Shown: positions 128 to 29,049 of the stretch, piece by piece
How positions within the stretch are numbered: the first letter of the stretch is position 1
How the letters are laid out: each line of letters starts with the position of its first letter
Source of the DNA: a virus
Lineage: Duplodnaviria; Caudoviricetes
Virus record (IMG/VR): IMGVR_UViG_3300027863_000008
Coordinates: 1 to 40,279 of that record
Direction: 5' to 3' (one strand)
DNA length: 40,279 nt
Made by a program: the position numbers and the translations under genes
Notes under the pieces: model-generated
Seen by the model: the letters and a program-made list of their open reading frames with translations, nothing else
Database searches by the model: none
What the model was told of the DNA's origin: nothing

Positions 128-295
128 CCTCGTAGAAATCTTTTTCAGCCTACGAAATACATTATGCGTCCCCTTTACGCCTATATAATCTAATACATAC
201 CCAGAACCACCTGCACTATATATTATATAATGCAAGAAACTAAAATCTATTAGACTATATAAACTACTTAAAAGCGCAGATAAAATCTTTATCAT
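113..295 (-). CDS. Small hypothetical protein (hydrophobic N-half, basic C-half)
   Basis: 60-aa ORF with an ATGA overlap onto the upstream pyruvyltransferase stop. It fills the gap in the late operon. Confidence 0.6.
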   Translation of the reverse strand: MIKILSALLSSLYSLIDFSFLHYIIYSAGGSGYVLDYIGVKGTHNVFRRLKKISTRFRRQ

Positions 296-1215
296 CTTTT
301 ATACTCTTCTAACTTGTGCAAAAAGTTTACAAAATGTGTCTTTATTAATTGCTTCCTATATTCTATATCATTATTAATTTCATTATATACTTCATTAAAT
401 ACAGAAATCTTATGTAAAAACTTACAAAAATCATCATTTATCTTTATATAATGATCATACATTTCACCATAATAATATTTCATACCAAAAACATGCTTTA
501 TATTACTTTGAATAATAAAACACGGCTTATTATAAGCAAAAGCTAATACAATACCATGAAACCTATTCGTTATAATATAATCTACCATACTATAATCACT
601 TAACTTAAAATCACTTGACTCGTGATTTATAAACAATAATTCTTTATCTATATACCCATTATATATACTCTTTATTGCATCATACCAATCAGGCTCATAT
701 AAAGATACACCTACTAAATTAAATACTTTTGAATTACCATGCTCATATCCAACAAACGATAAAACATCAGGACATATACTTATATCACTTTTATTTACAC
801 CATATTTATTTACCGCTTCAACACAATCATAAGAAGTCCTTAACCCTATCAAAGAACAATGCCGAAACAATTCTGAAATCTCATTATGCCTATGAGCATT
901 CACAGTATCATAAAAATCAAAATTAAAACCAGTTGTCATCATTATAATAGGACAACTAAAATAATTATATAATAACCCATTAAATACTGGAAACATATTG
1001 ACATTCTGTAATATACCGCCATTACCAACTATTATCAAATCAGTATCACAACAAAACTTCTCAACATCTTCCCTACTACTAAAATGTGCATTCTCATAAT
1101 TAACTAATTCAGAATTGCAATTTAAGAAAGTGTCAACATATCCCTTTAATAATTTTGCTGATAACCTATCACCAATATTAGCAAACTCGCATGCTGATAC
1201 TATCTTTACATTCAT
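292..1215 (-). CDS. Polysaccharide pyruvyl transferase family protein
   Basis: Motifs NIGD, DLIIVGNGGIL, IGLRT, CPDV and IITNRFHGIVLAFAYNKP are characteristic of the PS_pyruv_trans family. Likely start is MNVKIV at 1215 (ATGA overlap, GGGGAG SD). Confidence 0.85.
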   Translation of the reverse strand: MNVKIVSACEFANIGDRLSAKLLKGYVDTFLNCNSELVNYENAHFSSREDVEKFCCDTDLIIVGNGGILQNVNMFPVFNGLLYNYFSCPIIMMTTGFNFDFYDTVNAHRHNEISELFRHCSLIGLRTSYDCVEAVNKYGVNKSDISICPDVLSFVGYEHGNSKVFNLVGVSLYEPDWYDAIKSIYNGYIDKELLFINHESSDFKLSDYSMVDYIITNRFHGIVLAFAYNKPCFIIQSNIKHVFGMKYYYGEMYDHYIKINDDFCKFLHKISVFNEVYNEINNDIEYRKQLIKTHFVNFLHKLEEYKR

Positions 1216-2192
1216 ATCTCTCCCCCAAATACAAACCAATCAATAATCTCATTAATAATCTCATCTGATAACTTCCCATCTTTTATAACAAACCATTTAC
1301 AAAAATCTTGATTAAGTCCCCAACAAGTAGGATTATTATTAGCTTTAATAATATCACTCCAATATTCATTACCATCAGTAAGCTCAGGCAAAAAACATAT
1401 AGATCGTTTCCGTGCAAAACTTGCTGGTAAAAACATACAACTATGCGTCCCAATAAATCCTTTACTAAACAATACCAAATTCACCGCAAATCGCACAGTA
1501 GCCCTATTAACTAAATTCACTACATACTCATCATCATCACGATCATATATCTCTAACTTTAATGACTTGTTATTAACCATATTACGCTTGTAACTTCCAC
1601 CAACAATAACTACATTATATCCAAACTTAACTAACTCATCTATAAGTTTGTCATACTGATCTTGATCCAATACTTCCCTATTCTTAGCACCCGCAAATGG
1701 ATGCAATACAATATAATTAGAAGCAGTAATAAAATCAATAAACCGCTTTTCCTGCTCCTCACTATAATTCATATATACTTTTGGATATGAAGGAATATAC
1801 TCTAAATAAGAATTATTATCAAAATTATCATCATTCAATAAATGTATATTTTTATACCCATCATACTCTCTCATATACCATTCAGGATCATCATTACTAT
1901 ATTCAATTAAATCCACACGCTCAATACAAGGATGATATTCAAAAAACTCTTTTACTGCGAAGTTATGACATTTTGCTTTAACTATAATACTTGCGTCTCT
2001 ATGGTATCGCTTAAAGTCCTCTAATCTCCTAAACCATATACTTGCAACATTATCCGACGCTGGAAACTCATTAGGACATTCCTTCATCATTTGTAACCAG
2101 TGATACTGAGGATTAGCAAAATAATTCTGTATAACATCACCTAATCCACCACCACAATGAATATATACTTTTATTCCTTTATCGCTAAACAT
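1212..2192 (-). CDS. Glycosyltransferase family 9-like (heptosyltransferase-type GT-B)
   Basis: GGLGDVI, YIVLHPFAG, VVIVGG, VVNLV and GFIGTHSC match the GT9 pattern (GxGD...vlhP...fig.DSg). Confidence 0.75.
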   Translation of the reverse strand: MFSDKGIKVYIHCGGGLGDVIQNYFANPQYHWLQMMKECPNEFPASDNVASIWFRRLEDFKRYHRDASIIVKAKCHNFAVKEFFEYHPCIERVDLIEYSNDDPEWYMREYDGYKNIHLLNDDNFDNNSYLEYIPSYPKVYMNYSEEQEKRFIDFITASNYIVLHPFAGAKNREVLDQDQYDKLIDELVKFGYNVVIVGGSYKRNMVNNKSLKLEIYDRDDDEYVVNLVNRATVRFAVNLVLFSKGFIGTHSCMFLPASFARKRSICFLPELTDGNEYWSDIIKANNNPTCWGLNQDFCKWFVIKDGKLSDEIINEIIDWFVFGGEI

Positions 2193-2689
2193 AATAAATT
2201 ACTCCCCCCATCCGACCCAATACTTTGTATCTTAAATCCTATCTTTTCAAGTAAAGCCCTTAATGTATATTGATCAAATGCCCATTTATGATTATCATAT
2301 ACATTATCCGAACAAGAATATGCAAATAATAACTTAGCTACTTCTTCACCATCTAACCAATGCTGTAAAGAAGTAGGATTTTCAAGCACTCTACAATATC
2401 GCTTACATATAACCTCTAAATCAGGAACTTGAATAAATAACTTACCCCCATGCTTTAACTTATCATAACACTGCTGTAATACAAATTCCTGCCTATCACG
2501 ATATATATACTCTAAAACATCTTGCAAAACTATCTCTTCTACCCAACCATTTTCAAAAGGCAACTCTTCCTCAGATATGTCTAATACTAAATCAGCACCA
2601 TTCTTACGAATAGCATCTATATTAATATAACCATCTAATATCTTACCACCACAACCCAAATTTAATTTTATACTTTCTGTGCTAAACAT
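2171..2689 (-). CDS. Class I SAM-dependent methyltransferase (glycan-locus type)
   Basis: Motifs KLNLGCGG..GYINID, LPFE, DVLEY, LKHGGKLFIQVPD and LLEKIGF. Confidence 0.9.
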   Translation of the reverse strand: MFSTESIKLNLGCGGKILDGYINIDAIRKNGADLVLDISEEELPFENGWVEEIVLQDVLEYIYRDRQEFVLQQCYDKLKHGGKLFIQVPDLEVICKRYCRVLENPTSLQHWLDGEEVAKLLFAYSCSDNVYDNHKWAFDQYTLRALLEKIGFKIQSIGSDGGSNLLCLAIKE

Positions 2690-3327
2690 AATAAAGTCTC
2701 CCCTATACTAATAGCTTTAACAACAAATCCTGCCTTCTCCAAAGTGCTAATTAATAGCTCTTTATTATACATACATAAATGAAAATCCCCATCCACACAA
2801 CCATCTATAAACTTCGTAGTAGAACAACCAGAATATAACTTAAAGTTTAACCATTTAACTAATACACAAGGATCATCTGTCTTCAAGTCTGGATGCTCCG
2901 ATATGTCAGCTTTACCAGTCAAATATAAATCAATAATATAGTCTATATTAGGCGTTTCTATAAATATGTATCCATAATTATTAAGCAAAGAATTAAACCA
3001 CTTAAACATTAAATCTTGATATATCCATTCTATATGTTCTATTAAATGTTGTAATTTAATATAATCATAAGTCTTACCGTCAAACTTATGATATTTACCT
3101 AATATACCACCTTGCTTAAAAGCAGGTTTATGTTGAATATATACAGGAGCAAACATTTGCCTAATGTCAAAATTCCATGTCGCTTTACCATGCTTATCTA
3201 TCGTAACAAAATCATCTCTTAACTTTCCCGCCCCTATCTCTAACTTATTTTCCCTGCTAAACTTACTTTCCGTATCCTTTAATAACTTAAAAAATGTTTC
3301 AACACTTAATTCAATAATATCACTCAT
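2668..3327 (-). CDS. Class I SAM-dependent methyltransferase, paralog of 2171-2689
   Basis: Motifs KLEIGAG, VTID, HLIEHI, GYIFIETPN and LEKAGF. Shares the C-terminal LLCLA with its neighbour. Confidence 0.85.
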   Translation of the reverse strand: MSDIIELSVETFFKLLKDTESKFSRENKLEIGAGKLRDDFVTIDKHGKATWNFDIRQMFAPVYIQHKPAFKQGGILGKYHKFDGKTYDYIKLQHLIEHIEWIYQDLMFKWFNSLLNNYGYIFIETPNIDYIIDLYLTGKADISEHPDLKTDDPCVLVKWLNFKLYSGCSTTKFIDGCVDGDFHLCMYNKELLISTLEKAGFVVKAISIGETLLCLAQKV

Positions 3328-4334
3328 TTTCGTCTCCCCACATAATTAATAACATTATTAAACCAAAACACATCATCAGCAACCTTTTCCATAGATATAG
3401 ACTTCATACAAAACCTAAAAATACACGGATGATACCAGCATGGCTTACGCTTACAACGATTATATCCACTATACCACATACTATTATTGTAACCACTTAA
3501 CCGCATAGCAGGATCAGTTGATCCAAATATACCATACACAGGCACGCCTAAACCACCAGCTAAATGAACACCCATGCTGTCTACACCTATAAGCAACTTA
3601 CTGGAAGCAACAAATGCCATTACATATCGTAATGGAGTTGAAATAACATTAACTATATTCTTATACCGCTTTAACCTATACTTCCAATCATGCGATAAAA
3701 GCACTAATCCATATCCAATATTATCTAACCGCTTAGCTAATTCTATTGCTAATGTATCAGCATGAAACTTTGGCAAATCTCTTGCAGGAGAATTTGACCT
3801 GACATGAAATACAAAATAATTCTCATAAGGTATAGCATGCTTTATTTGATTTATCTCGTCATCTGTTACATAAAGATTACAATCACCTTTATTATATTTC
3901 ACCCCACACGCTTCCGCAAACAATTCCTGTCTGCTCTTTTGGATATCCGGCTCATTAAAAGCCTCATAAACAGCCGACGGACATGGATGCGATAACCCCA
4001 CAAACATAGCACCAGCCCTCTCAAAATATTCCCTGCATATCTCTTTACCACTTCCATAATCAATTGCACCATCCGCATGCACCCTATCAAACTTAGAACT
4101 ATCAACTATCCAATCAATATCAGGATTATTAAAAAATACTGGAGCACAATACGGAATAGTTGCAACTATAATTTTTATGCTTTTACCTAATTCTCGCCTT
4201 AATCCCGTTATAGCACCAGTTATCATTACCGCATCGCCTATACCACCTATATCCCTATATAACACAATAGCTTCTTTGTTCTTAATATCATCAGCGACTA
4301 CATGTATATCACTGAACCCTAAATTATAACCCAT
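3324..4334 (-). CDS. Glycosyltransferase family 9 (ADP-heptose:LPS heptosyltransferase-like)
   Basis: GGIGDAVM, NNPDID, LLIGVDSMGVHLAGGLGVPVYGIFGSTDP and a C-terminal Cys cluster (C..KPCW..PC...CM..IS.EKV) are hallmark GT9 motifs. Confidence 0.92.
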   Translation of the reverse strand: MGYNLGFSDIHVVADDIKNKEAIVLYRDIGGIGDAVMITGAITGLRRELGKSIKIIVATIPYCAPVFFNNPDIDWIVDSSKFDRVHADGAIDYGSGKEICREYFERAGAMFVGLSHPCPSAVYEAFNEPDIQKSRQELFAEACGVKYNKGDCNLYVTDDEINQIKHAIPYENYFVFHVRSNSPARDLPKFHADTLAIELAKRLDNIGYGLVLLSHDWKYRLKRYKNIVNVISTPLRYVMAFVASSKLLIGVDSMGVHLAGGLGVPVYGIFGSTDPAMRLSGYNNSMWYSGYNRCKRKPCWYHPCIFRFCMKSISMEKVADDVFWFNNVINYVGRRK

Positions 4335-4353
4335 ATTTCCCCTCCACACGCTA

Positions 4354-16563: not shown

Positions 16564-17159
16564 CTTATCCCTTCCACCATCTTCGGCATACCAACTATAT
16601 CAGGAACATAAGGATTTACCTTGTTCACTACCTTTACCACTCCACCACTACGAGGAACTATACCACCACTAAAAGCCCTATCCACACTCCTACCTATACG
16701 CTCTATACCTTTAACACTACGATATTGCCTCGTATATACACCAGTCTTTATCGGCGTATTCACCTTAACCTTTAACCCCTCTAAAATATACTTCTGCCTC
16801 TCTCCCATATCACGATTGCCAACCTTCAAAAACCCTAACCTGTCACGCTCTATCGCCCTAACTATCGCCCTAACTGGCTTGTAACTCATCGCCTTGCCTA
16901 CCTCCGCACCAGCACGATATATGTTCGCTAAATCCATTAACGCTCCATACGCCATTCCACCAGCACCAATAGCACGAACTATACCATTACCCAAAACAGC
17001 ACGACCTATACTACTACCAACCCTTATACGACCACCCTTAACAACATTCCCCATAATTATGTTGTCAGAACTTATACGTCCACGCCGTATCATACCCTTA
17101 CTTACCCTAACCTTACTCGCCACTTCCAGTTCCCTCCATCTCACGCAAAGCATCAGCAT
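16560..17159 (-). CDS. Highly basic Arg/Gly/Val-rich protein (start uncertain, probably shorter)
   Basis: ORF between the TerS candidate and TerL, with an ATGA overlap onto TerL. Very few acidic residues. Confidence 0.6.
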   Translation of the reverse strand: MLMLCVRWRELEVASKVRVSKGMIRRGRISSDNIIMGNVVKGGRIRVGSSIGRAVLGNGIVRAIGAGGMAYGALMDLANIYRAGAEVGKAMSYKPVRAIVRAIERDRLGFLKVGNRDMGERQKYILEGLKVKVNTPIKTGVYTRQYRSVKGIERIGRSVDRAFSGGIVPRSGGVVKVVNKVNPYVPDIVGMPKMVEGIR

Positions 17160-17478
17160 TGCGATCCATTAACTCACTTACTATCCGACCCATGTCCAAC
17201 CGCCCCACTACATCTATCCCCTGAACAGGATCAACAGTCTTACGCAAAGCTAACCTCCCCAAAAAACTATACATCCGCTCATCACTTATCCGTCCATTCC
17301 CATACGCCTCAAACATCACCGCCATCCCAAATATACCATATATGTCATCTATATTCCCACCATCTACCAATATCTCCTCTATCCGCCTACGCAAACGATC
17401 CCCTATCATCAATGCCAACCTACGTAATCCACCCTCATCTATGTTAATAATAAAATCTATGTCCTCTCGCACCTTCAT
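17113..17478 (-). CDS. Putative terminase small subunit (first late gene)
   Basis: 121-aa helical protein with a C-terminal PVQGIDVVGRLD strand. First gene after the leftward promoter and two genes upstream of TerL. Call is positional. Confidence 0.45.
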   Translation of the reverse strand: MKVREDIDFIINIDEGGLRRLALMIGDRLRRRIEEILVDGGNIDDIYGIFGMAVMFEAYGNGRISDERMYSFLGRLALRKTVDPVQGIDVVGRLDMGRIVSELMDRNADALREMEGTGSGE

Positions 17479-17607
17479 ATAAACACCACCTAATAAAACT
17501 ACCTATATAAAAGTAAATGACTATAATCCCCACCTACTCGTAAAAAAATAATTAAATATACAACATCCCATCCCTAAATAAATAACCCATACTATCACTA
17601 TACTATC

Positions 17608-17636
17608 ATTTTAACTCTACAGCATCCATCTGTCAA
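17608..17636 (-). promoter_or_regulatory. sigma70-type promoter of the leftward (late) operon
   Basis: TTGACA-17 nt-TAAAAT, preceded by A-tracts (UP-element-like) at ~17640-17692. Confidence 0.8.
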
Positions 17637-17914
17637 GAACTTTTTATAAAAATTATTAAACTTTTTTTAATTTCTTTTTAACTTTTTTTTAACCCACACC
17701 TCACCACCATCCCCTCAATAAAACTATACTAAAATTCTTTCCCAACTTTTTTTACCCCATTTTCCCTTGTCAACCAGTCAAATCATAAAAAAATATTAAA
17801 AATACTATTAATATTGACCACTTTCTGAACAATTCTAAAACACTTTTATTATACACTCTATTAATAAGTGTTGTAAAAATGATACACTTTTCATTGTCAA
17901 CCCGCTAAAATCAA

Positions 17915-18182
17915 TTTGTAATCGCTCTATCGCTTACAAAAATTCTCTCACTTTTATAATCCATACATCGCTTACAAAAACCACTTTATAAGCCCTCCAT
18001 CGCTTACAAAAATCCCTAACCTTTATAAGCCATTAAACACTTATAAACCAATTTTTATAATCGCTCTATCACTTACAAATATAACCAAAATTTATAAGCC
18101 CTCCATCGCTTACAAAATGTTTATAAGCCTTTCATCGCTTACAAAAATCCCTAACCTTTATAAGCCCTCCATCGCTTACAAA
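17915..18182 (+). repeat. Array of eight 26-bp dyad repeats TTTRTAA-N12-TTAYAAA
   Basis: Copies start at 17915, 17953, 17985, 18022, 18054, 18091, 18120 and 18157. Three are identical (TTTATAAGCCCTCCATCGCTTACAAA). Confidence 0.95.
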
Positions 18183-18820
18183 CCTCCACTACCCCACCTC
18201 CCTACCTATACCCCATCCCCCATACCCTCTAACCTCTACTATATCAATTACCCCTAATCCCTATAATATAAAGCACGGGAAAGTATTAAACCCCGCTTGC
18301 CAATATCCCACCGCACCGACGCTTTTCGCTTGCTGGCAAGCTCACTTAAACCCGCATGCCTATTAGATTTGCTGGCATTTTGACTTGCTTACTCGGAAAC
18401 CTCTCCTATCTGATACCTTTCTACTTTCTCAATGTCAAAATATAAACTCGGTATAAAGCAAGTATTCATAAGGGTTTGCATACAATCAGACTTATTAAAA
18501 ACAAACCATATAATACAAAGTTCCTTTCTATCACGACCTACCACCTTAAAACACATCACTAAAATCATTTCTAATGCGTCTATCTTTCGTTTTAACGCTT
18601 GTTCAACCAAAATAGGTATAATTCACGGCTAAAAATCAAAACGTAAGTAAAATCAAGGTTTACGGCATTTTGGTTTGTAAAAGACGACGCTTAAAACGCA
18701 TTTTAGAATGTTCGTTTATGCAAATTGTGTTATCCTCCAAACCCTTTTCAAAGACATAGTCCCTCAAACCCTTGTCCTGTAAAGGTTTCAACGAAAAAAT
18801 GCGGATTTACAGCCTCTTTT

Positions 18821-18962
18821 TTTTCCGTTCTCTGCGTTTGAAATTTTTTTCATTAGAAATTTTTAACTAATTTACAAATACATTAATACATTAATAAATA
18901 AATAAATAAATAAATAAATTAAATTTTTCCAATGAAAATTTTTTCAGTTCAAGATCGGAAAA
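18821..18962. repeat. AT-rich inverted repeat enclosing (TAAA)6; candidate DNA-unwinding element/origin
   Basis: Arms 18839-18866 and 18919-18946 match 22/28. Outer TTTTCCG/CGGAAAA pair. (TAAA)6 at 18895-18918. Confidence 0.6.
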
Positions 18963-19003
18963 TTCATCTCTACTAATTTAATAGACTTTATAGAGATTAA
19001 AAT

Positions 19004-19019
19004 TGGCACGAATTTTGCT
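19004..19019 (+). promoter_or_regulatory. sigma54 (-24/-12) promoter, rightward
   Basis: TGGCACGAATTTTGCT is a full match to TGGCACG-N4-TTGCW. Confidence 0.75.
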
Positions 19020-19026
19020 ACTTACT

Positions 19027-19042
19027 TGCAATTTTTATGCCA
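19027..19042 (-). promoter_or_regulatory. sigma54 (-24/-12) promoter, leftward
   Basis: Minus strand reads TGGCATAAAAATTGCA, with exact GG-N10-GC spacing. Confidence 0.7.
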
Positions 19043-19073
19043 AGATTTGTTGACACTTTGCTAATCGTGTTTT

Positions 19074-19086
19074 TATCAATTTGTTG
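19074..19086 (+). promoter_or_regulatory. IHF consensus site
   Basis: TATCAA-TTTG-TTG matches WATCAA-N4-TTR. Lies between the sigma54 boxes and the NtrC-like boxes. The motif is short, so chance is possible. Confidence 0.4.
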
Positions 19087-19176
19087 ACAGCTGGCGAGTT
19101 GCAAAGAGATAGCACAATTTGGATATACGGTTATTTAACAGAATGATAAAAATGCTTAACATATGATAAGTAAAAA

Positions 19177-19305
19177 TGCACCATATGGTGCAATTTTGGA
19201 GAGTGGATGCACCAAATGTGGCAAGTTGTGTAAAGCTTTTATTTATAAGGGTTTGATGGCGATTTGGCATAGAACTTGTGGAAAGTGGATGCACCAAATG
19301 GTGCA
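19177..19305. promoter_or_regulatory. Three NtrC-like palindromes TGCACCA-N2-TGGTGCA
   Basis: 19177-19192 TGCACCATATGGTGCA, 19208-19223 TGCACCAAATGTGGCA (degenerate) and 19290-19305 TGCACCAAATGGTGCA. Confidence 0.6.
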
Positions 19306-19422
19306 TTTTATTAACCGAATATGCGAATTGTGGAATGAAAAAATTGCATAAGGCTTGATGGATAAAGGGTTTGAGGGGCTTTAACAGATGTGAAATGGTA
19401 GGGATAGGTTCAAAACGCTTTA

Positions 19423-19448
19423 TTTGTAAGCGTTTAAGCGATTATAAA
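19423..19448 (-). promoter_or_regulatory. Ninth, inverted copy of the 26-bp dyad (candidate operator)
   Basis: Reverse complement is TTTATAA-TCGCTTAAACGC-TTACAAA. It ends 3 bp before the sigma54 -24 box. Confidence 0.75.
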
Positions 19449-19451
19449 AAT

Positions 19452-19467
19452 TGGCATGGCAATTGCA
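19452..19467 (+). promoter_or_regulatory. sigma54 promoter of the rightward (early) operon
   Basis: TGGCATGGCAATTGCA has exact -24/-12 spacing and lies ~190 bp upstream of the first early gene. Confidence 0.7.
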
Positions 19468-19556
19468 TATATATATAGGCGTTGTTAAAAATTTAATAGT
19501 TTTTTGGAAATGCTGGTGTATCCGAGATTACGCCAGATTTGGTATTTTACAATAGA

Positions 19557-19636
19557 GGGCAGGCGAGCCTGTAAAAGTGGTAGAGGTTTGGTGACTGCTT
19601 TACTTTATTGCTTATTATTTTATTAGATAAAGCAGT
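19557..19636 (+). ncRNA. Structured 5' leader, copy A (hairpin + predicted H-type pseudoknot)
   Basis: Homologous to 20311-20387 with pairing-preserving substitutions. Directly upstream of SD AAGGAG. Confidence 0.6.
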
Positions 19637-19656
19637 AATCAGAAGGAGAAGGGAAA

Positions 19657-19839
19657 ATGAAAAAATTTGGTGCTGGACTTACAGCTGATCAAATCAAATT
19701 AGCAAGACTATTAGAGAAATTTGAGATCACAACTTATTCTCAAGCTGTTAAAGCTATGCTTAGAAGAGATAACGAAAAAATATCTCAGATGAAAAAACAG
19801 CTTTCTGAAAAACTTTCAGATGAAGGAGGTTCAAGATGA
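19657..19839 (+). CDS. Small ribbon-helix-helix-like DNA-binding protein
   Basis: Strand KKFGAGL, helix TADQIKLARLLEK and helix TYSQAVKAMLRR follow the Arc/CopG pattern. Strong SD. First early gene. Confidence 0.5.
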   Translation: MKKFGAGLTADQIKLARLLEKFEITTYSQAVKAMLRRDNEKISQMKKQLSEKLSDEGGSR

Positions 19840-20219
19840 TTAGAGGCGAAAGTAATGTTACTTCTGTGGCATTTAGTCCAGATGGAAAGATACTGGCAAG
19901 TGTAGGTTGGGAAGATGTGGTCAAGCTATGGGATGTGAGAAGAGGCGTATTAGTCAAGATACTTTCGGGACATACGAATTATGTTCGTTCCGTAGCATTT
20001 AGTCCAGATGGAAAGATACTGGCAAGTGGAAGTTTGGATGGGACAATCAATTTGTGGGATGTGGAAAGTGGGGCGTTAATCAGGACGCTTTGGGGACATA
20101 CAAGAGGGGTTGCTTCCGTCTCATTTAGCCCAGATGGAGAGGTATTAGCAAGTATTGGTTGGGATGGGACAGTTAGGATATGGAATGTGGAAAGGGGGGA
20201 GTTGATTAGGACATTATAA
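19836..20219 (+). CDS. WD40-repeat protein with exactly three repeats
   Basis: Three 42-aa units SV[AS]FSPDG..LAS...D..[VI].[LI]W[DN]V..G.L[IV]. A 34-bp identical DNA repeat occurs at 19869-19902 and 19995-20028. SD AAGGAGGT. Confidence 0.95.
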   Translation: MIRGESNVTSVAFSPDGKILASVGWEDVVKLWDVRRGVLVKILSGHTNYVRSVAFSPDGKILASGSLDGTINLWDVESGALIRTLWGHTRGVASVSFSPDGEVLASIGWDGTVRIWNVERGELIRTL

Positions 20220-20233
20220 CATTATAACAAAAG

Positions 20234-20387
20234 GGCGCTGACTTGATGTCGGCGCTAATGCCAGCGGGGCGAGCTTGCTGGTGGTGCTGGTGTAAGTCCC
20301 TTTTGAAAAGGGGCAGGCGAGCTTGCGTAGAGTGATAAAGGTTTGATAACAGCTTTACTTTATTGCTCTTTAAGGATAAAGCTGTTA
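20234..20387 (+). ncRNA. Hairpin-dense intergenic region including structured leader copy B (20311-20387)
   Basis: Hairpins at 20234-20256, 20260-20282, 20296-20314 and 20313-20326, followed by the pseudoknot module. Confidence 0.6.
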
Positions 20388-20403
20388 GTAATGGAGGTAA
20401 AAA

Positions 20404-20766
20404 ATGGAGAAAGGTCGTTTTTTTATTGAGCGGACAAAAAGTGGACTCACATCCTTTTGGGAAGAGGGTGGCGGAATGACCAATACTGGTCATTCCATAA
20501 TAATTGCAGGTCGTGATGGAGAGAGATTGAAACCAATTTATGTAAAGCGGAGAGGATCTCTTGCCTGTGGACGGCATGCGCTTTTTGTAATTCACGATGG
20601 TTGCACAATTATTTGTGCTAACCATCATCGTGGGGATTTTCAAGTTATTGTTTATGTTATAGAAAAAATAGGAAAGTTATTAGGGACGGACATGGAGCAA
20701 GCTATTAGTTTTTTAGCTTTTAGTTTTTTAGCTTTTAGTTTTTTAGCGTTTTATTCGTTTTATTAA
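20404..20766 (+). CDS. Hypothetical protein with C-terminal (AFSFL)n repeat
   Basis: GGAGGT SD. Globular-looking N-part (WEEGGGMTNTG, GRHALF). 15-bp tandem repeat at 20701-20747. Confidence 0.8.
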   Translation: MEKGRFFIERTKSGLTSFWEEGGGMTNTGHSIIIAGRDGERLKPIYVKRRGSLACGRHALFVIHDGCTIICANHHRGDFQVIVYVIEKIGKLLGTDMEQAISFLAFSFLAFSFLAFYSFY

Positions 20767-25748: not shown

Positions 25749-26051
25749 ATGAAGTTTAAGGGTGTTAATTTTCCAAGAGAGTTTCTTGACAAGCTCGCAA
25801 TAGTTGCAAGATTACAGAATAAGACTATTAGGGGTTTAATTATTGATGTTGTAGAGAAGTATGTATTGAAGGGGGGGAATGAAGTAGTGAATGTTAGGTG
25901 TCCATCTTGTGGGCACGAGTTTGAGACGATTGTTCAATTAAGTGAATATTCGGAAGTAGTTGAAGCTATTGATAAAGTGATAGCTAAAAAGGATAAGGAA
26001 GAGGTTATAGTTGATATAGATATAAAAGGAGGAAAGTATGTCAAATGCTGA
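25749..26051 (+). CDS. RHH-like DNA-binding protein with zinc ribbon
   Basis: FKGVNFPREFLDKLAIVA...TIRGLIIDVVEKY (RHH pattern) plus RCPSCGHEF. Confidence 0.7.
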   Translation: MKFKGVNFPREFLDKLAIVARLQNKTIRGLIIDVVEKYVLKGGNEVVNVRCPSCGHEFETIVQLSEYSEVVEAIDKVIAKKDKEEVIVDIDIKGGKYVKC

Positions 26052-29049
26052 ACTCTATGTAGAGGTTCATGGTTTTAATGGTAGTAAGCCGTTGCCTAAG
26101 TGGGAACGGATACCTATATCAGAGATAACTACGTGGAGGGGAAAGAATGAGCATTTGACGGTTTTATTGAAATCAGTTCAGTCGTTTGTGAATAAAGAAC
26201 GGGGGGGTGATGACCCCCACATAGCTCCTGTGTATTTTGATTTTGATAGTAATGATCCAATATTAGCTTTATCAGACGCAAGGAGTTTATATCAGCATTT
26301 AGTATCTTTATATGGTGATTTAGATATAAATATTTGGTTTAGCGGGAATAAAGGATTTCATATATTTATTAATCCTGAGCATTTTGGCATAAAGATACAC
26401 AAGCATACTACATATCATATCAGATACATAGTTGATCACTTTGTTAAAAAGTTGGATTTGACTACTGCTGATTTAGGTGTATATACTATTCCTCGTCTTT
26501 GGAGGATAGCTAATACACCTAATAAAGATCATTACAAAATTCCGATCACTATATATGAGTTTTTGAGTTGGGATTTTGAGAGCATAAAGAAGTTGGCAGA
26601 GTATAAGAGAGATGTAGATTACTATGATAATGATTTTAAGATGATAGAACTTATACCAGAGCTAAATGAATTATATTTATCTGCTGTTGATCAGTATGGG
26701 CAGTCAAAATCAATCATTGCTCCAATTTATGATCCAGTAGAGATAAATGATCAACTTCCACCGTGTATAAAGTATATCTTTAACCATCAAGGATTGCTGA
26801 AATTAGGGTATCGTAATAGAACATCGGTAGTTTTGTCGGCATATTGTAAAGACGCTGGTAAAGATATAGATCAAGCTAAGACATTCTTGAATGAATGGTT
26901 ATCTACAATTCCTGATCCCTCGCCTTTAACTTCTACAAATGGCAATGCAAGGATAACGGAAGCTATGGCAGTAATAAAGACTGTATATGCTTCTGAAAAG
27001 TATCATTTTAGCTGTGGGTCAATATTAGATTGTGGTGTTCCAAGAGATGTATGCACAAATTGCGAGTCGTTAGGTGAGAAAGTTAAAGTTATAGAATTCA
27101 AAGATTTTGCTGAGAAAGATAATATTGGGGGACAACTTTTAGAGTTTGAAGCTGATGTTGTAGGTAAGGATAAGATTGAAATGCTTATTCCTAAAAAGAT
27201 AACGGGGCATTGTGTATTTGACCCTGATAAGAATGCTTGTATAAGTTGTCCTATGGCTGATTATTTTGATATAGAAAAGCGGGAGTGTAGTAGGACAGTT
27301 AATGTATCAGCTAAGAGTAAATGGATAGTAGAATTGCTTGATCAGCGGGCAGGGAATATAGATGTTATAGTTAAGAAGTTGTTTGGTGTATATGGCAAAA
27401 GTTGTGGGTTATTCCAATATGATATAGAGTGGCAGAATGCTCAAAAGGTGCATTTAGCTACTGCGATAAACAGGTCATATATAGATACAACTGATAAGAA
27501 GTATTATGCTGGGACGGGCTATGTGCTTTTGCATGGGATAGAGATGAATAGAGGCTATCGTATGCGGGGAAGGGTATATCCTAATTTTCGTAACCGAGAG
27601 GCGACGCTCATCATAGAGTCAGCTGAACCGTTACAGACACTTATAGACAACTTTGTTTTGACGCCAAGAGATGCGGATGAATTAGAGGTGTTCAAGCCGA
27701 GTAAACTTACGCCTGATGGGATATTAGAAAAGATACGGGATATACATAGTTGCTTTCGTGATAGCTTTATATTCATATTCGGTAGAGACGATTTGATATT
27801 GGCGGAGGATTTAGTATTTCATTCTGTAAGAAAGTTTTATTTTCAAAGGCAATTAAAGAAGGGCTGGTTAGATATACTTATTGTTGGTGATACCAGACAA
27901 GGAAAGACTGAGATAGCAAAGAAGCTAATGGATTATTATCAAGTAGGGACTTTTGCGTCAGGTGAAACATCATCAAGGACTGGTTTACTTTATACTATAC
28001 AGATGACAAAGGAAGAGGCTAACTGGGTGCGGTTTGGGTTAATGCCTCGTTCTAATGGTATGTTGTTAGTAGTGGATGAGATACACGGGATGCCATCTGA
28101 TGACTTTAAGGAGTTTACACAAGTAAGATCGGAAGGGGTATTAGATGTCATGCGTGCTGGGGTTGGCAAAACGCCTTGTGAGGTTAGATTGATTTGTATC
28201 GCTAATCCAAGGACTGGCGCGTCTATGTCAAGTTATGGTTATCCTGTTCAAGCTATAACAGAGATACCAGCTTTTTCTTCGTTAGAAGATGTTGCTCGGT
28301 TTACTTATGCTTATGGGGTAAAGGCGGGTGAAGTGTCAGATGATGACTTGAACCGAGATGTAAATGAGATACCAATCAAAGAGCACCCATATACACGGGA
28401 AAAATGCAGGAATTTAATTTTATGGCTATGGACTTTGAAACCAGATGACATAATAATTTCGCCTGATACAGAGAAACGGGTCTTGACGCTTGCTAAACAG
28501 ATTTCATTAGAGTATGTGCCTGATATTCCTTTAATAGAGAGTGCTGATGTTAGACAAAAGCTAATGATAGTTGCAACTGCTATTGCTGGCAGGACATATA
28601 ATTCAGATGGTAAAAGGCTTATAGTATTGCCAGCACATGTTGATACAGCTTATAATGTCTTGAATATGTTCTATAAGTCAGAAGGGTTGGATTATTATGG
28701 GTTCAGCGACGACCAAGCTCGTATGTTGTTATCAAGCGAGCAAGTTGAGCAGATAGAGGAAAAGATAATGAGAGAGATACCAAACTGGGAAGGGGTTATA
28801 AGGTATATGATAGCCTCTAACTCCTTTAATAAAACTATCCTTTATCAATCAACTGGAATAAATAAAGATGTGGCTGATAGGCTGATAACATTGTTTTTGA
28901 ATTGCAACTTTTTGCAGTCAAGACAACACTTTTTAAGGAAAACCGCACAAGGCAGAAACTTTATGAGGAATATGGTTAAAAAGTATGGAATGTATTCTAA
29001 AAAAGAAATAGATAGTATACAAGAAATAATAAAAGATGATGATTTTTAA
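26038..29049 (+). CDS. AEP primase-polymerase + PriL-like Cys domain + MCM-type AAA+ helicase fusion
   Basis: AEP motifs YFDFDS, FSGNKGFH, D.GVY and RIANT. LPPCI...HFSC...C..C. MCM-like ILIVGDTRQGKT, GETSSRTGL, VVDE, ANPR and DVARF. Confidence 0.85.
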   Translation: MSNAELYVEVHGFNGSKPLPKWERIPISEITTWRGKNEHLTVLLKSVQSFVNKERGGDDPHIAPVYFDFDSNDPILALSDARSLYQHLVSLYGDLDINIWFSGNKGFHIFINPEHFGIKIHKHTTYHIRYIVDHFVKKLDLTTADLGVYTIPRLWRIANTPNKDHYKIPITIYEFLSWDFESIKKLAEYKRDVDYYDNDFKMIELIPELNELYLSAVDQYGQSKSIIAPIYDPVEINDQLPPCIKYIFNHQGLLKLGYRNRTSVVLSAYCKDAGKDIDQAKTFLNEWLSTIPDPSPLTSTNGNARITEAMAVIKTVYASEKYHFSCGSILDCGVPRDVCTNCESLGEKVKVIEFKDFAEKDNIGGQLLEFEADVVGKDKIEMLIPKKITGHCVFDPDKNACISCPMADYFDIEKRECSRTVNVSAKSKWIVELLDQRAGNIDVIVKKLFGVYGKSCGLFQYDIEWQNAQKVHLATAINRSYIDTTDKKYYAGTGYVLLHGIEMNRGYRMRGRVYPNFRNREATLIIESAEPLQTLIDNFVLTPRDADELEVFKPSKLTPDGILEKIRDIHSCFRDSFIFIFGRDDLILAEDLVFHSVRKFYFQRQLKKGWLDILIVGDTRQGKTEIAKKLMDYYQVGTFASGETSSRTGLLYTIQMTKEEANWVRFGLMPRSNGMLLVVDEIHGMPSDDFKEFTQVRSEGVLDVMRAGVGKTPCEVRLICIANPRTGASMSSYGYPVQAITEIPAFSSLEDVARFTYAYGVKAGEVSDDDLNRDVNEIPIKEHPYTREKCRNLILWLWTLKPDDIIISPDTEKRVLTLAKQISLEYVPDIPLIESADVRQKLMIVATAIAGRTYNSDGKRLIVLPAHVDTAYNVLNMFYKSEGLDYYGFSDDQARMLLSSEQVEQIEEKIMREIPNWEGVIRYMIASNSFNKTILYQSTGINKDVADRLITLFLNCNFLQSRQHFLRKTAQGRNFMRNMVKKYGMYSKKEIDSIQEIIKDDDF

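Follow-up and report, generated by a model that had tools for sequence, protein, structure and literature searches.

Between the divergent gene arms of an uncultured phage, we observe a cluster of three sequences that look like true sigma-54 sites, the first two of which face each other. In related phages, such boxes occupy the same place in varying layouts, and sigma-70 and sigma-54 promoters appear to be exchanged at one position ahead of the early genes. The reading that we favor, tentatively and at somewhat under an even chance, is that the boxes bind the sigma-54 polymerase of the host, that box 3 starts the early genes with a host activator bound to nearby palindromes, and that the face-to-face pair is a site for capturing one polymerase at a time.

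The window, i.e., the whole 40,279-bp stretch of DNA that was analyzed, is an entire podovirus-like phage record and is circular in contigs of two hot-spring runs. Its genes include those for an SU10-type portal and adaptor, a major head protein, a terminase large subunit, an SNF2 helicase, and a primase-MCM fusion. The structural genes run leftward from 17478 and the replication genes rightward from 19657. The 2.2 kb between these arms contain no ORF with a family match (nor any Rfam match in 17200-20500), and hold the boxes, palindromes, a boxA-like leader, an AT tract, and a sigma-70 promoter. The features of this region and of the genes bordering it are as follows:

17113..17478, minus strand: first structural-arm gene, 121 aa, with homologues in four relatives
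17608..17636, minus strand: sigma-70 consensus promoter, TTGACA-17-TAAAAT, ahead of the terminase arm
17915..18182, no strand: eight copies of a 26-bp quasi-palindrome of the type TTTRTAAGC-N8-GCTTAYAAA; a ninth (19423-19448) abuts box 3
18314..18330, no strand: CGACGC(T/C)T motif, flanked by the terminase arm and the boxes and found in the corresponding position in 3/5 relatives
18876..18925, no strand: the 50-mer with the highest AT content in the genome (96%, AAAT repeats), next to the skew minimum; candidate unwinding element
19004..19019, plus strand: sigma-54 -24/-12 box 1, TGGCACGAATTTTGCT, the top-ranked match genome-wide, with a start predicted at about 19030
19027..19042, minus strand: sigma-54 -24/-12 box 2, reverse complement of TGGCATAAAAATTGCA, facing box 1; predicted start about 19016
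19177..19192, no strand: perfect 16-bp palindrome TGCACCA-N2-TGGTGCA; candidate enhancer, NtrC-like
19208..19223, no strand: second palindrome copy, with 2 mismatches and located 31 bp from the first
19265..19280, plus strand: near-miss box, GT for GC, with a weak score; possibly a decayed site
19290..19305, no strand: third palindrome copy, also perfect, preceding the predicted box 3 start by about 180 bp
19452..19467, plus strand: sigma-54 box 3, TGGCATGGCAATTGCA; predicted start about 19478
19541..19552, plus strand: boxA-like element with 2 mismatches in the leader that follows box 3, aligning with better copies in three relatives
19657..19839, plus strand: first early-arm gene, 60 aa, with no family in an atlas search

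On position alone, the 121-aa product is likely the terminase small subunit, and the 60-aa product looks by eye like a ribbon-helix-helix protein. The second early gene (19836-20219, plus strand) encodes 127 aa comprising just three WD40 repeats, which alone are too short for a propeller; it has no match among the stretches of the relatives that were compared, and a search with this ORF for clues to the host returned generic repeats. The primase-MCM helicase fusion (26038-29049, plus strand; 1003 aa) has 27-29% identity to Bacillus and Microbacterium phage proteins and is the sole protein shared with cultured phages, at <60% identity, the 20 matches listed lying at 27-29%. After the capsid and tail genes, a minus-strand block at 292-4349 encodes a pyruvyl transferase, two GT9-like glycosyltransferases, and two methyltransferases; this block is common to relatives L461 and L474 and may serve virion glycosylation. 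Neither CRISPR-like loose ends (positions beyond 14000) nor any RNA record of this sequence appeared among the matches listed.

All three boxes have the GG-10 bp-GC spacing and the TGGCAY..TTGCW consensus. Boxes 1 and 2 are separated by 7 nt (ACTTACT), corresponding to a gap of 9 nt from TTGC to GCAA. With +1 set twelve nucleotides past the conserved C, following the register in PMC4591121, the pair has predicted starts at 19030 (plus) and 19016 (minus), each within the opposite box and 14 bp from the other. The predicted transcripts would thus diverge without overlap, making the pair a set of overlapping divergent promoters. An earlier sequence-only reading of this DNA had described the facing boxes 7 bp apart, the third box at 19452, and the placement of each start inside the opposite box, and all of these were recovered. 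The distance to the downstream gene is 190 nt for box 3, 640 nt for box 1, and 1.5 kb for box 2, whose predicted start points into the AT-rich tract and non-coding repeats. Immediately to the right of the pair, TTTGTTGACA occurs twice (19046 and 19080), and it occurs three times near the boxes of relative G002; these copies may be -35 hexamers or a protein site.

The clustering is well beyond what shuffled sequences yield. Across the genome, TGGCA-N7-TGC matches 4 times, compared with a mean of 0.71; none of 100 shuffles reached 4, and three of the four matches fall inside 463 bp. In a rough weight matrix, self-built on the sigma-54 consensus, the three boxes reach 20.3 bits (the maximum), 17.4 bits, and 16.6 bits and rank first, second, and joint third, the tie being with a fourth match at 3771 (plus strand) that lies antisense inside a glycosyltransferase gene and was missed by the sequence-only reading. 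The control region contains 3 matches of at least 13 bits, while 5000 local shuffles have a mean of 0.027 and none reached 3. Similar-scoring hits scattered evenly through the genome had been named as an outcome that would speak against the boxes; instead, the boxes are three of the four best matches and are clustered. The near-miss at 19265 is present with GT for GC as had been described, but at 9.3 bits and rank 21 it is within noise.

No gene for sigma-54 or a bacterial enhancer-binding protein (bEBP) was found in the six frames of the window or among its 51 ORFs, in agreement with the earlier view that the genome has no recognizable activator. The phage therefore likely relies on those of its host for early transcription, an indication that the host is bacterial and rpoN-positive.

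As a single query, the terminase identified no relatives in viral contigs, and capsid alignment yielded 8 viral loci at 54-68% identity. TGGCAY-N5-TTGC occurs in 4/4 near-complete records and 2/4 partial ones, with the match in G007 lying inside the primase gene. We compared the gap between the terminase and early genes in five relatives (G001-G004 and G008, with capsids 55-68% identical) and observe 2-5 boxes in each of the five, with a layout that varies. G002 and G008 have early-pointing boxes only, G003 has one back-to-back and one tandem pair, and G001 has two boxes pointing to the terminase. G004 is the sole relative (1/5) with a face-to-face arrangement, having two such pairs with gaps of 4 and 3. 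Conservation among relatives, which had been put forward as a check, thus holds for the location of the boxes (5/5) but not for their face-to-face layout.

The promoters of the two arms behave differently across the family. In all six members, a separate sigma-70 promoter with 0-1 mismatch precedes the terminase arm. At the early arm, G001 and G003 have a perfect sigma-70 promoter and no boxA, whereas in G002, G004, G008, and the window, the last sigma-54 box is followed 59-89 nt on by a boxA-like word that aligns across the four. We found no good sigma-70 promoter for the early arm of the window and no good sigma-70 site at the pair. This swap of sigma-70 and sigma-54 at one position is the best evidence that box 3 may be a working early promoter, and box 3 is likely the main one. 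BoxA is described as a GYTCTTTAANA-like element on the sense strand of the leader (PMC5725501). G002, G004, and G008 have near matches to it, the copy in the window is weaker, and the pattern was chosen after sight; after the boxes of other phage loci, a boxA-like word shows no enrichment (3/365 sense, 3/365 antisense). A generic promoter scan yielded 12 sites with 11.8 expected, i.e., a chance level, and only two 11-of-12 matches were therefore used.

The 16-bp palindromes, which the sequence-only reading had missed, lie 180-290 bp upstream of box 3, a long distance for an enhancer, and 168-281 bp upstream of the leftward start. Shuffles of the region yield a mean of 0.011 and a maximum of 1 TGCACCA-N2-TGGTGCA palindromes. 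The NtrC site is given as a 17-bp TGCACCA-N3-TGGTGCA (PMC8743547), and we rejected the identification of the palindromes as NtrC sites because all copies in the window are 16 bp with N2, one base short of this consensus. No exact IHF consensus stands out, and with one mismatch allowed the control region is not enriched (12 of 110 matches). The 16-bp form is found in 0/5 relatives, and among 121 sampled viral loci that have it, none has a strict sigma-54 box; the 16-bp palindromes of viral contigs are often coding repeats. In the phylum of a Geobacteraceae metagenome-assembled genome (MAG) whose group is reported to be rich in bEBPs (PMC12316311), the exact palindrome with a W-W center occurs in 2 of 401 genomes, one copy being coding and the other doubled (L615). 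The L615 palindromes follow a REC-Sigma54_activat-HTH_8 gene and lie about 80 bp from a one-mismatch sigma-54-like box, which shows in this one case only that the 16-bp form can occupy the place of an enhancer. The overlapping TGCACCA-N2-TGGTGCA copies at L615:1420-1545 precede a pterin-binding methyltransferase gene and are a candidate enhancer of an unstudied activator. The palindrome is not enriched in 7 genomes of the order of L615.

Other phages have other palindromes near their boxes. G001 (L483:2691-3060) and G002 (L484:6141-6310) have several 17-bp TG-N4-A-N3-T-N4-CA palindromes unlike those of the window, and this difference suggests that each phage uses a different host activator. 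Canonical 17-bp NtrC sites occur within 300 bp of a pair in 7/78 phage loci and none lies beyond 600 bp, an excess that is absent for other spacers, with the 7 loci representing only 2 of 36 linkage clusters.

Beyond this family, the face-to-face pattern TGGCA-N6-TTGC-N(0-30)-GCAA-N6-TGCCA matches about 900 IMG/VR stretches (an estimate from 123 loci in 9/64 parts), compared with 79 in the whole collection for a control pattern with one extra base. Gaps of 3-7 are seen in 108 of 141 distinct viral face-to-face pairs, and the first two unspecified positions of the 141 are 97% C/T and 96% A/G, matching the sigma-54 consensus, whereas the mis-spaced control has neither base bias nor gap preference. 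The arms of the pairs lack hairpin complementarity (131/141 have no more than 3 of 6 spacer matches). Back-to-back pairs (about 690) and head-to-tail pairs (about 1700 over two strands) are as common as face-to-face ones and have their own preferred gaps; half of the tandem pairs (73/146) are only 10-14 nt apart, a spacing that dense capture arrays would fit better than independent promoters. Because all orientations are frequent, each with its own gaps, the phenomenon is one of clustering with spacing rules, and face-to-face is one form of it. The gap of 9 found in the window is seen at only 6 loci (4 sequences) in the entire viral collection, making the window an atypical example.

In a set of 80 flanked loci, 22 lie inside a naive ORF call and 10 have one side missing, leaving 48 callable pairs, which are located between divergent (29), co-directional (14), or convergent (5) genes, two contigs entering the count twice. 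Linkage groups the 80 loci into 36 clusters, of which 23 have a pair with a gap of 3-7. A sigma-54 DNA-binding domain was found in 0/55 records, which include those of 50 of the 123 loci and are in many cases fragmentary. The single Sigma54_activat match among 50 phage records, in L612, was rejected as an activator, having no GAFTGA-like motif and appearing RuvB-like by eye. In other phages, namely L016, L023, L032, L041, L051, L059 (about 3000-3170), and L634, three to four face-to-face pairs are arrayed with a 46-50 bp period. Among bacteria, about 1400 stretches in GTDB genomes (596 Gb) match the face-to-face pattern, with flat gaps and no sigma-54 bias except in a Leptospira repeat, and in the 401 genomes of the Geobacteraceae MAG's phylum a face-to-face pair at a gap of 3-10 occurs in 1. 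The gap-4 matches in Leptospira were considered as phage control regions and rejected, as they belong to a dispersed repeat that is also on plasmid p74. This repeat is about 180 nt long (L412:2501 and 4334, L362, L366, L371, L380, L403, and L613:6081).

The surroundings of the pair also have features of an origin or genome end. The coding strand is G-marked across the whole genome, and the cumulative GC skew is lowest at 18973 (plateau 18929-19095); since skew everywhere tracks the direction of the genes, it cannot separate replication from transcription here. The contig piece 18137-19898 has a depth of 19.9 versus 13.6 in one run and 23.7 versus 13.9 in the other, 1.5-1.7 times the rest, which, as one figure per contig, is a hint of a terminal repeat of about 0.8-1.2 kb or a packaging start. 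CGACGC(T/C)T is a candidate terminase or end signal. The 26-bp quasi-palindromes, which have a tenth match elsewhere in the genome, are possible binding sites of a phage protein.

These features raise the rather unlikely alternative that the pair belongs to a replication origin or genome end, where the holoenzyme would distort or transcribe DNA by the AT tract. Its roles could then be loading of the primase-MCM helicase, priming of replication, or marking of a terminal repeat for packaging or entry. The skew plateau brackets the pair with the AT-richest 50-mer 80 bp off, the skew minimum and AT tract of G004 sit between its two pairs, and 4/5 relatives have an AT tract at a distance of 70-180 bp from a box. 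Among the 71 proteins scanned, terminase large subunits are encoded beside pairs at 6 loci, and the closed complex is described as distorting DNA downstream of -12 (PMC5505868). The depth excess is seen in two runs, but both may be the source of this DNA. Moreover, the four pair-less relatives have skew minima away from their boxes, and no paper with such a role for sigma-54 was found. It is still less likely that the boxes are instead untranscribed decoys or repressive sites that soak up holoenzyme or block overlapping sigma-70 starts, although dense arrays in all orientations, TTGACA hexamers after the pair (19050 and 19084), and the retention of boxes in G001 and G003, where both arms have perfect sigma-70 promoters, would be consistent with this. 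Three boxes are few for a sponge, and the early arm of the window has no good sigma-70 promoter. The roadblock or decoy role had been raised by the sequence-only reading; a roadblock to elongation is disfavored by E. coli data, in which no roadblock repression is reported (PMC4591121), while competition between overlapping promoters is possible, repressive RpoN promoters having been described (PMC8743547).

The main proposal of that reading, an either/or switch in which the pair sets leftward (structural) versus rightward (early) transcription under a host activator, appears distinctly unlikely. The geometry implies that the two boxes cannot be occupied jointly, and to this extent mutually exclusive occupancy would be expected. 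The palindromes are also located upstream of the leftward start, divergent genes flank 29 of the 48 callable viral pairs, a rise in skew across the pair is seen in 40/60, and competition is described at activated sigma-70 bidirectional promoters (PMC12825309). What is unsupported is the choice between programs: both in the window and in 5/5 relatives, a sigma-70 consensus promoter is dedicated to the terminase arm, so that the two arms would not both depend on competing, conserved promoters. In addition, three relatives lack either the pair or any leftward box (none in G002 and G008), the gap of 9 is rare among viruses, and box 2 is set apart from the first leftward gene by 1.5 kb of repeats. 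We consider it very improbable that the inverted pair is an operator of another dimeric protein, from phage or host, or a hairpin that is merely sigma-54-like. The pair does fold weakly as DNA (-6.5 kcal/mol), and a 34-nt stretch of the dispersed Leptospira repeat fits the same pattern, but only the positions conserved for sigma-54 pair, spacing and orientation vary freely, single boxes appear to suffice in relatives, and none of the 55 records searched has a sigma-54 DNA-binding domain.

In the favored reading of capture and early transcription, closed complexes of the host sigma-54 holoenzyme would load onto the cluster after entry, and a host enhancer-binding protein on the palindromes would open box 3, from which a transcript with a Nus-type leader would run through the early arm. 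The pair would hold one holoenzyme at a time, raising local polymerase occupancy, and it may fire short divergent RNAs either way, the leftward ones into non-coding DNA only. The pair likely serves to capture or retain polymerase next to what is probably an origin or a genome end. The 16-bp palindromes being outside the NtrC form, the post hoc nature of the boxA pattern, and the long enhancer distance all count against this reading.

The boxes resemble glnAp2/NtrC-type RpoN promoters in having GG-N10-GC with full flanking consensus and upstream TGCACCA/TGGTGCA palindromes, two of them 31 bp apart (the glnA enhancer spacing is about 32). They differ in being phage-borne, in pointing in both directions within 460 bp, in the 16-bp length of the palindromes, and in the lack of an activator gene nearby. 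The pair is also similar to sigma-70 bidirectional promoters, in which binding events are exclusive and divergent starts are close (a predicted 14 bp here, and 16-20 bp for the gaps that are common in phages). In that class, a start spacing of 18 bp is commonest (bioRxiv 2020.01.31.928960; PMC12825309), and the 14 bp of the window, a predicted value only, compares with the 7-25 bp of the Warman/Grainger definition. The pair was nonetheless rejected as a member of that class, as it consists of two separate -24/-12 boxes that need an activator, with no shared -10 element read by sigma-70; sigma54 has no term match in PMC12825309.

Sigma-54-driven phage programs had been called rarely described, and the searchable literature bears this out, with one mapped sigma-54-like start in Pseudomonas phage YuA (promoter P015; bioRxiv 2023.10.13.562163) and two genes annotated as sigma-54-related in phages phi1422 and Q19 (PMC3391216, PMC7693777). 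A sigma-54 hypothesis also appears in connection with Htm (bioRxiv 2026.10.06.757011). YuA is likewise a phage with a sigma-54-like host promoter and, in the accessible text, no reported sigma-54 of its own, but the promoter described there is single, with no face-to-face pair or cluster at an arm junction. Repressive RpoN promoters and silent E. coli sites similarly hold inactive holoenzyme, with possible sigma-70 competition (PMC8743547, PMC4591121), and most E. coli sigma-54 sites are reported as bound yet silent (PMC4591121); as presented in the accessible parts of these sources, such sites are chromosomal and single rather than arrayed. We found no literature on face-to-face sigma-54 boxes or clusters in phages in a search of openly accessible main texts. 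New here are the family comparison (the sigma-70/sigma-54 swap and a late promoter distinct from it), the putative enhancers, and the rules of spacing in all three orientations.

More broadly, uncultured phages might build their origin or entry end from fixed-spacing arrays of host sigma-54 sites, with a stalled, DNA-distorting closed complex and a host enhancer protein together acting as a licensing device, an idea that we hold to be rather doubtful. If true, replication and early transcription would proceed only when a particular host signaling pathway is active, and face-to-face boxes would represent an origin opener or a sigma-54 type of bidirectional promoter, nearly absent from bacterial chromosomes. 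The spacing rules are sharp (3-7 nt face to face, 10-14 nt in tandem) and hardly used by bacteria, which makes the packing of sigma-54 holoenzyme a testable question. For phages that are unassigned, the boxes are a marker of rpoN-positive bacterial hosts. Finally, the family seems to use sigma-70 in some members and sigma-54 in others for the same early promoter; the onset of infection would thereby be tied to a signal of the host, for example its nitrogen, envelope, or carbon status.
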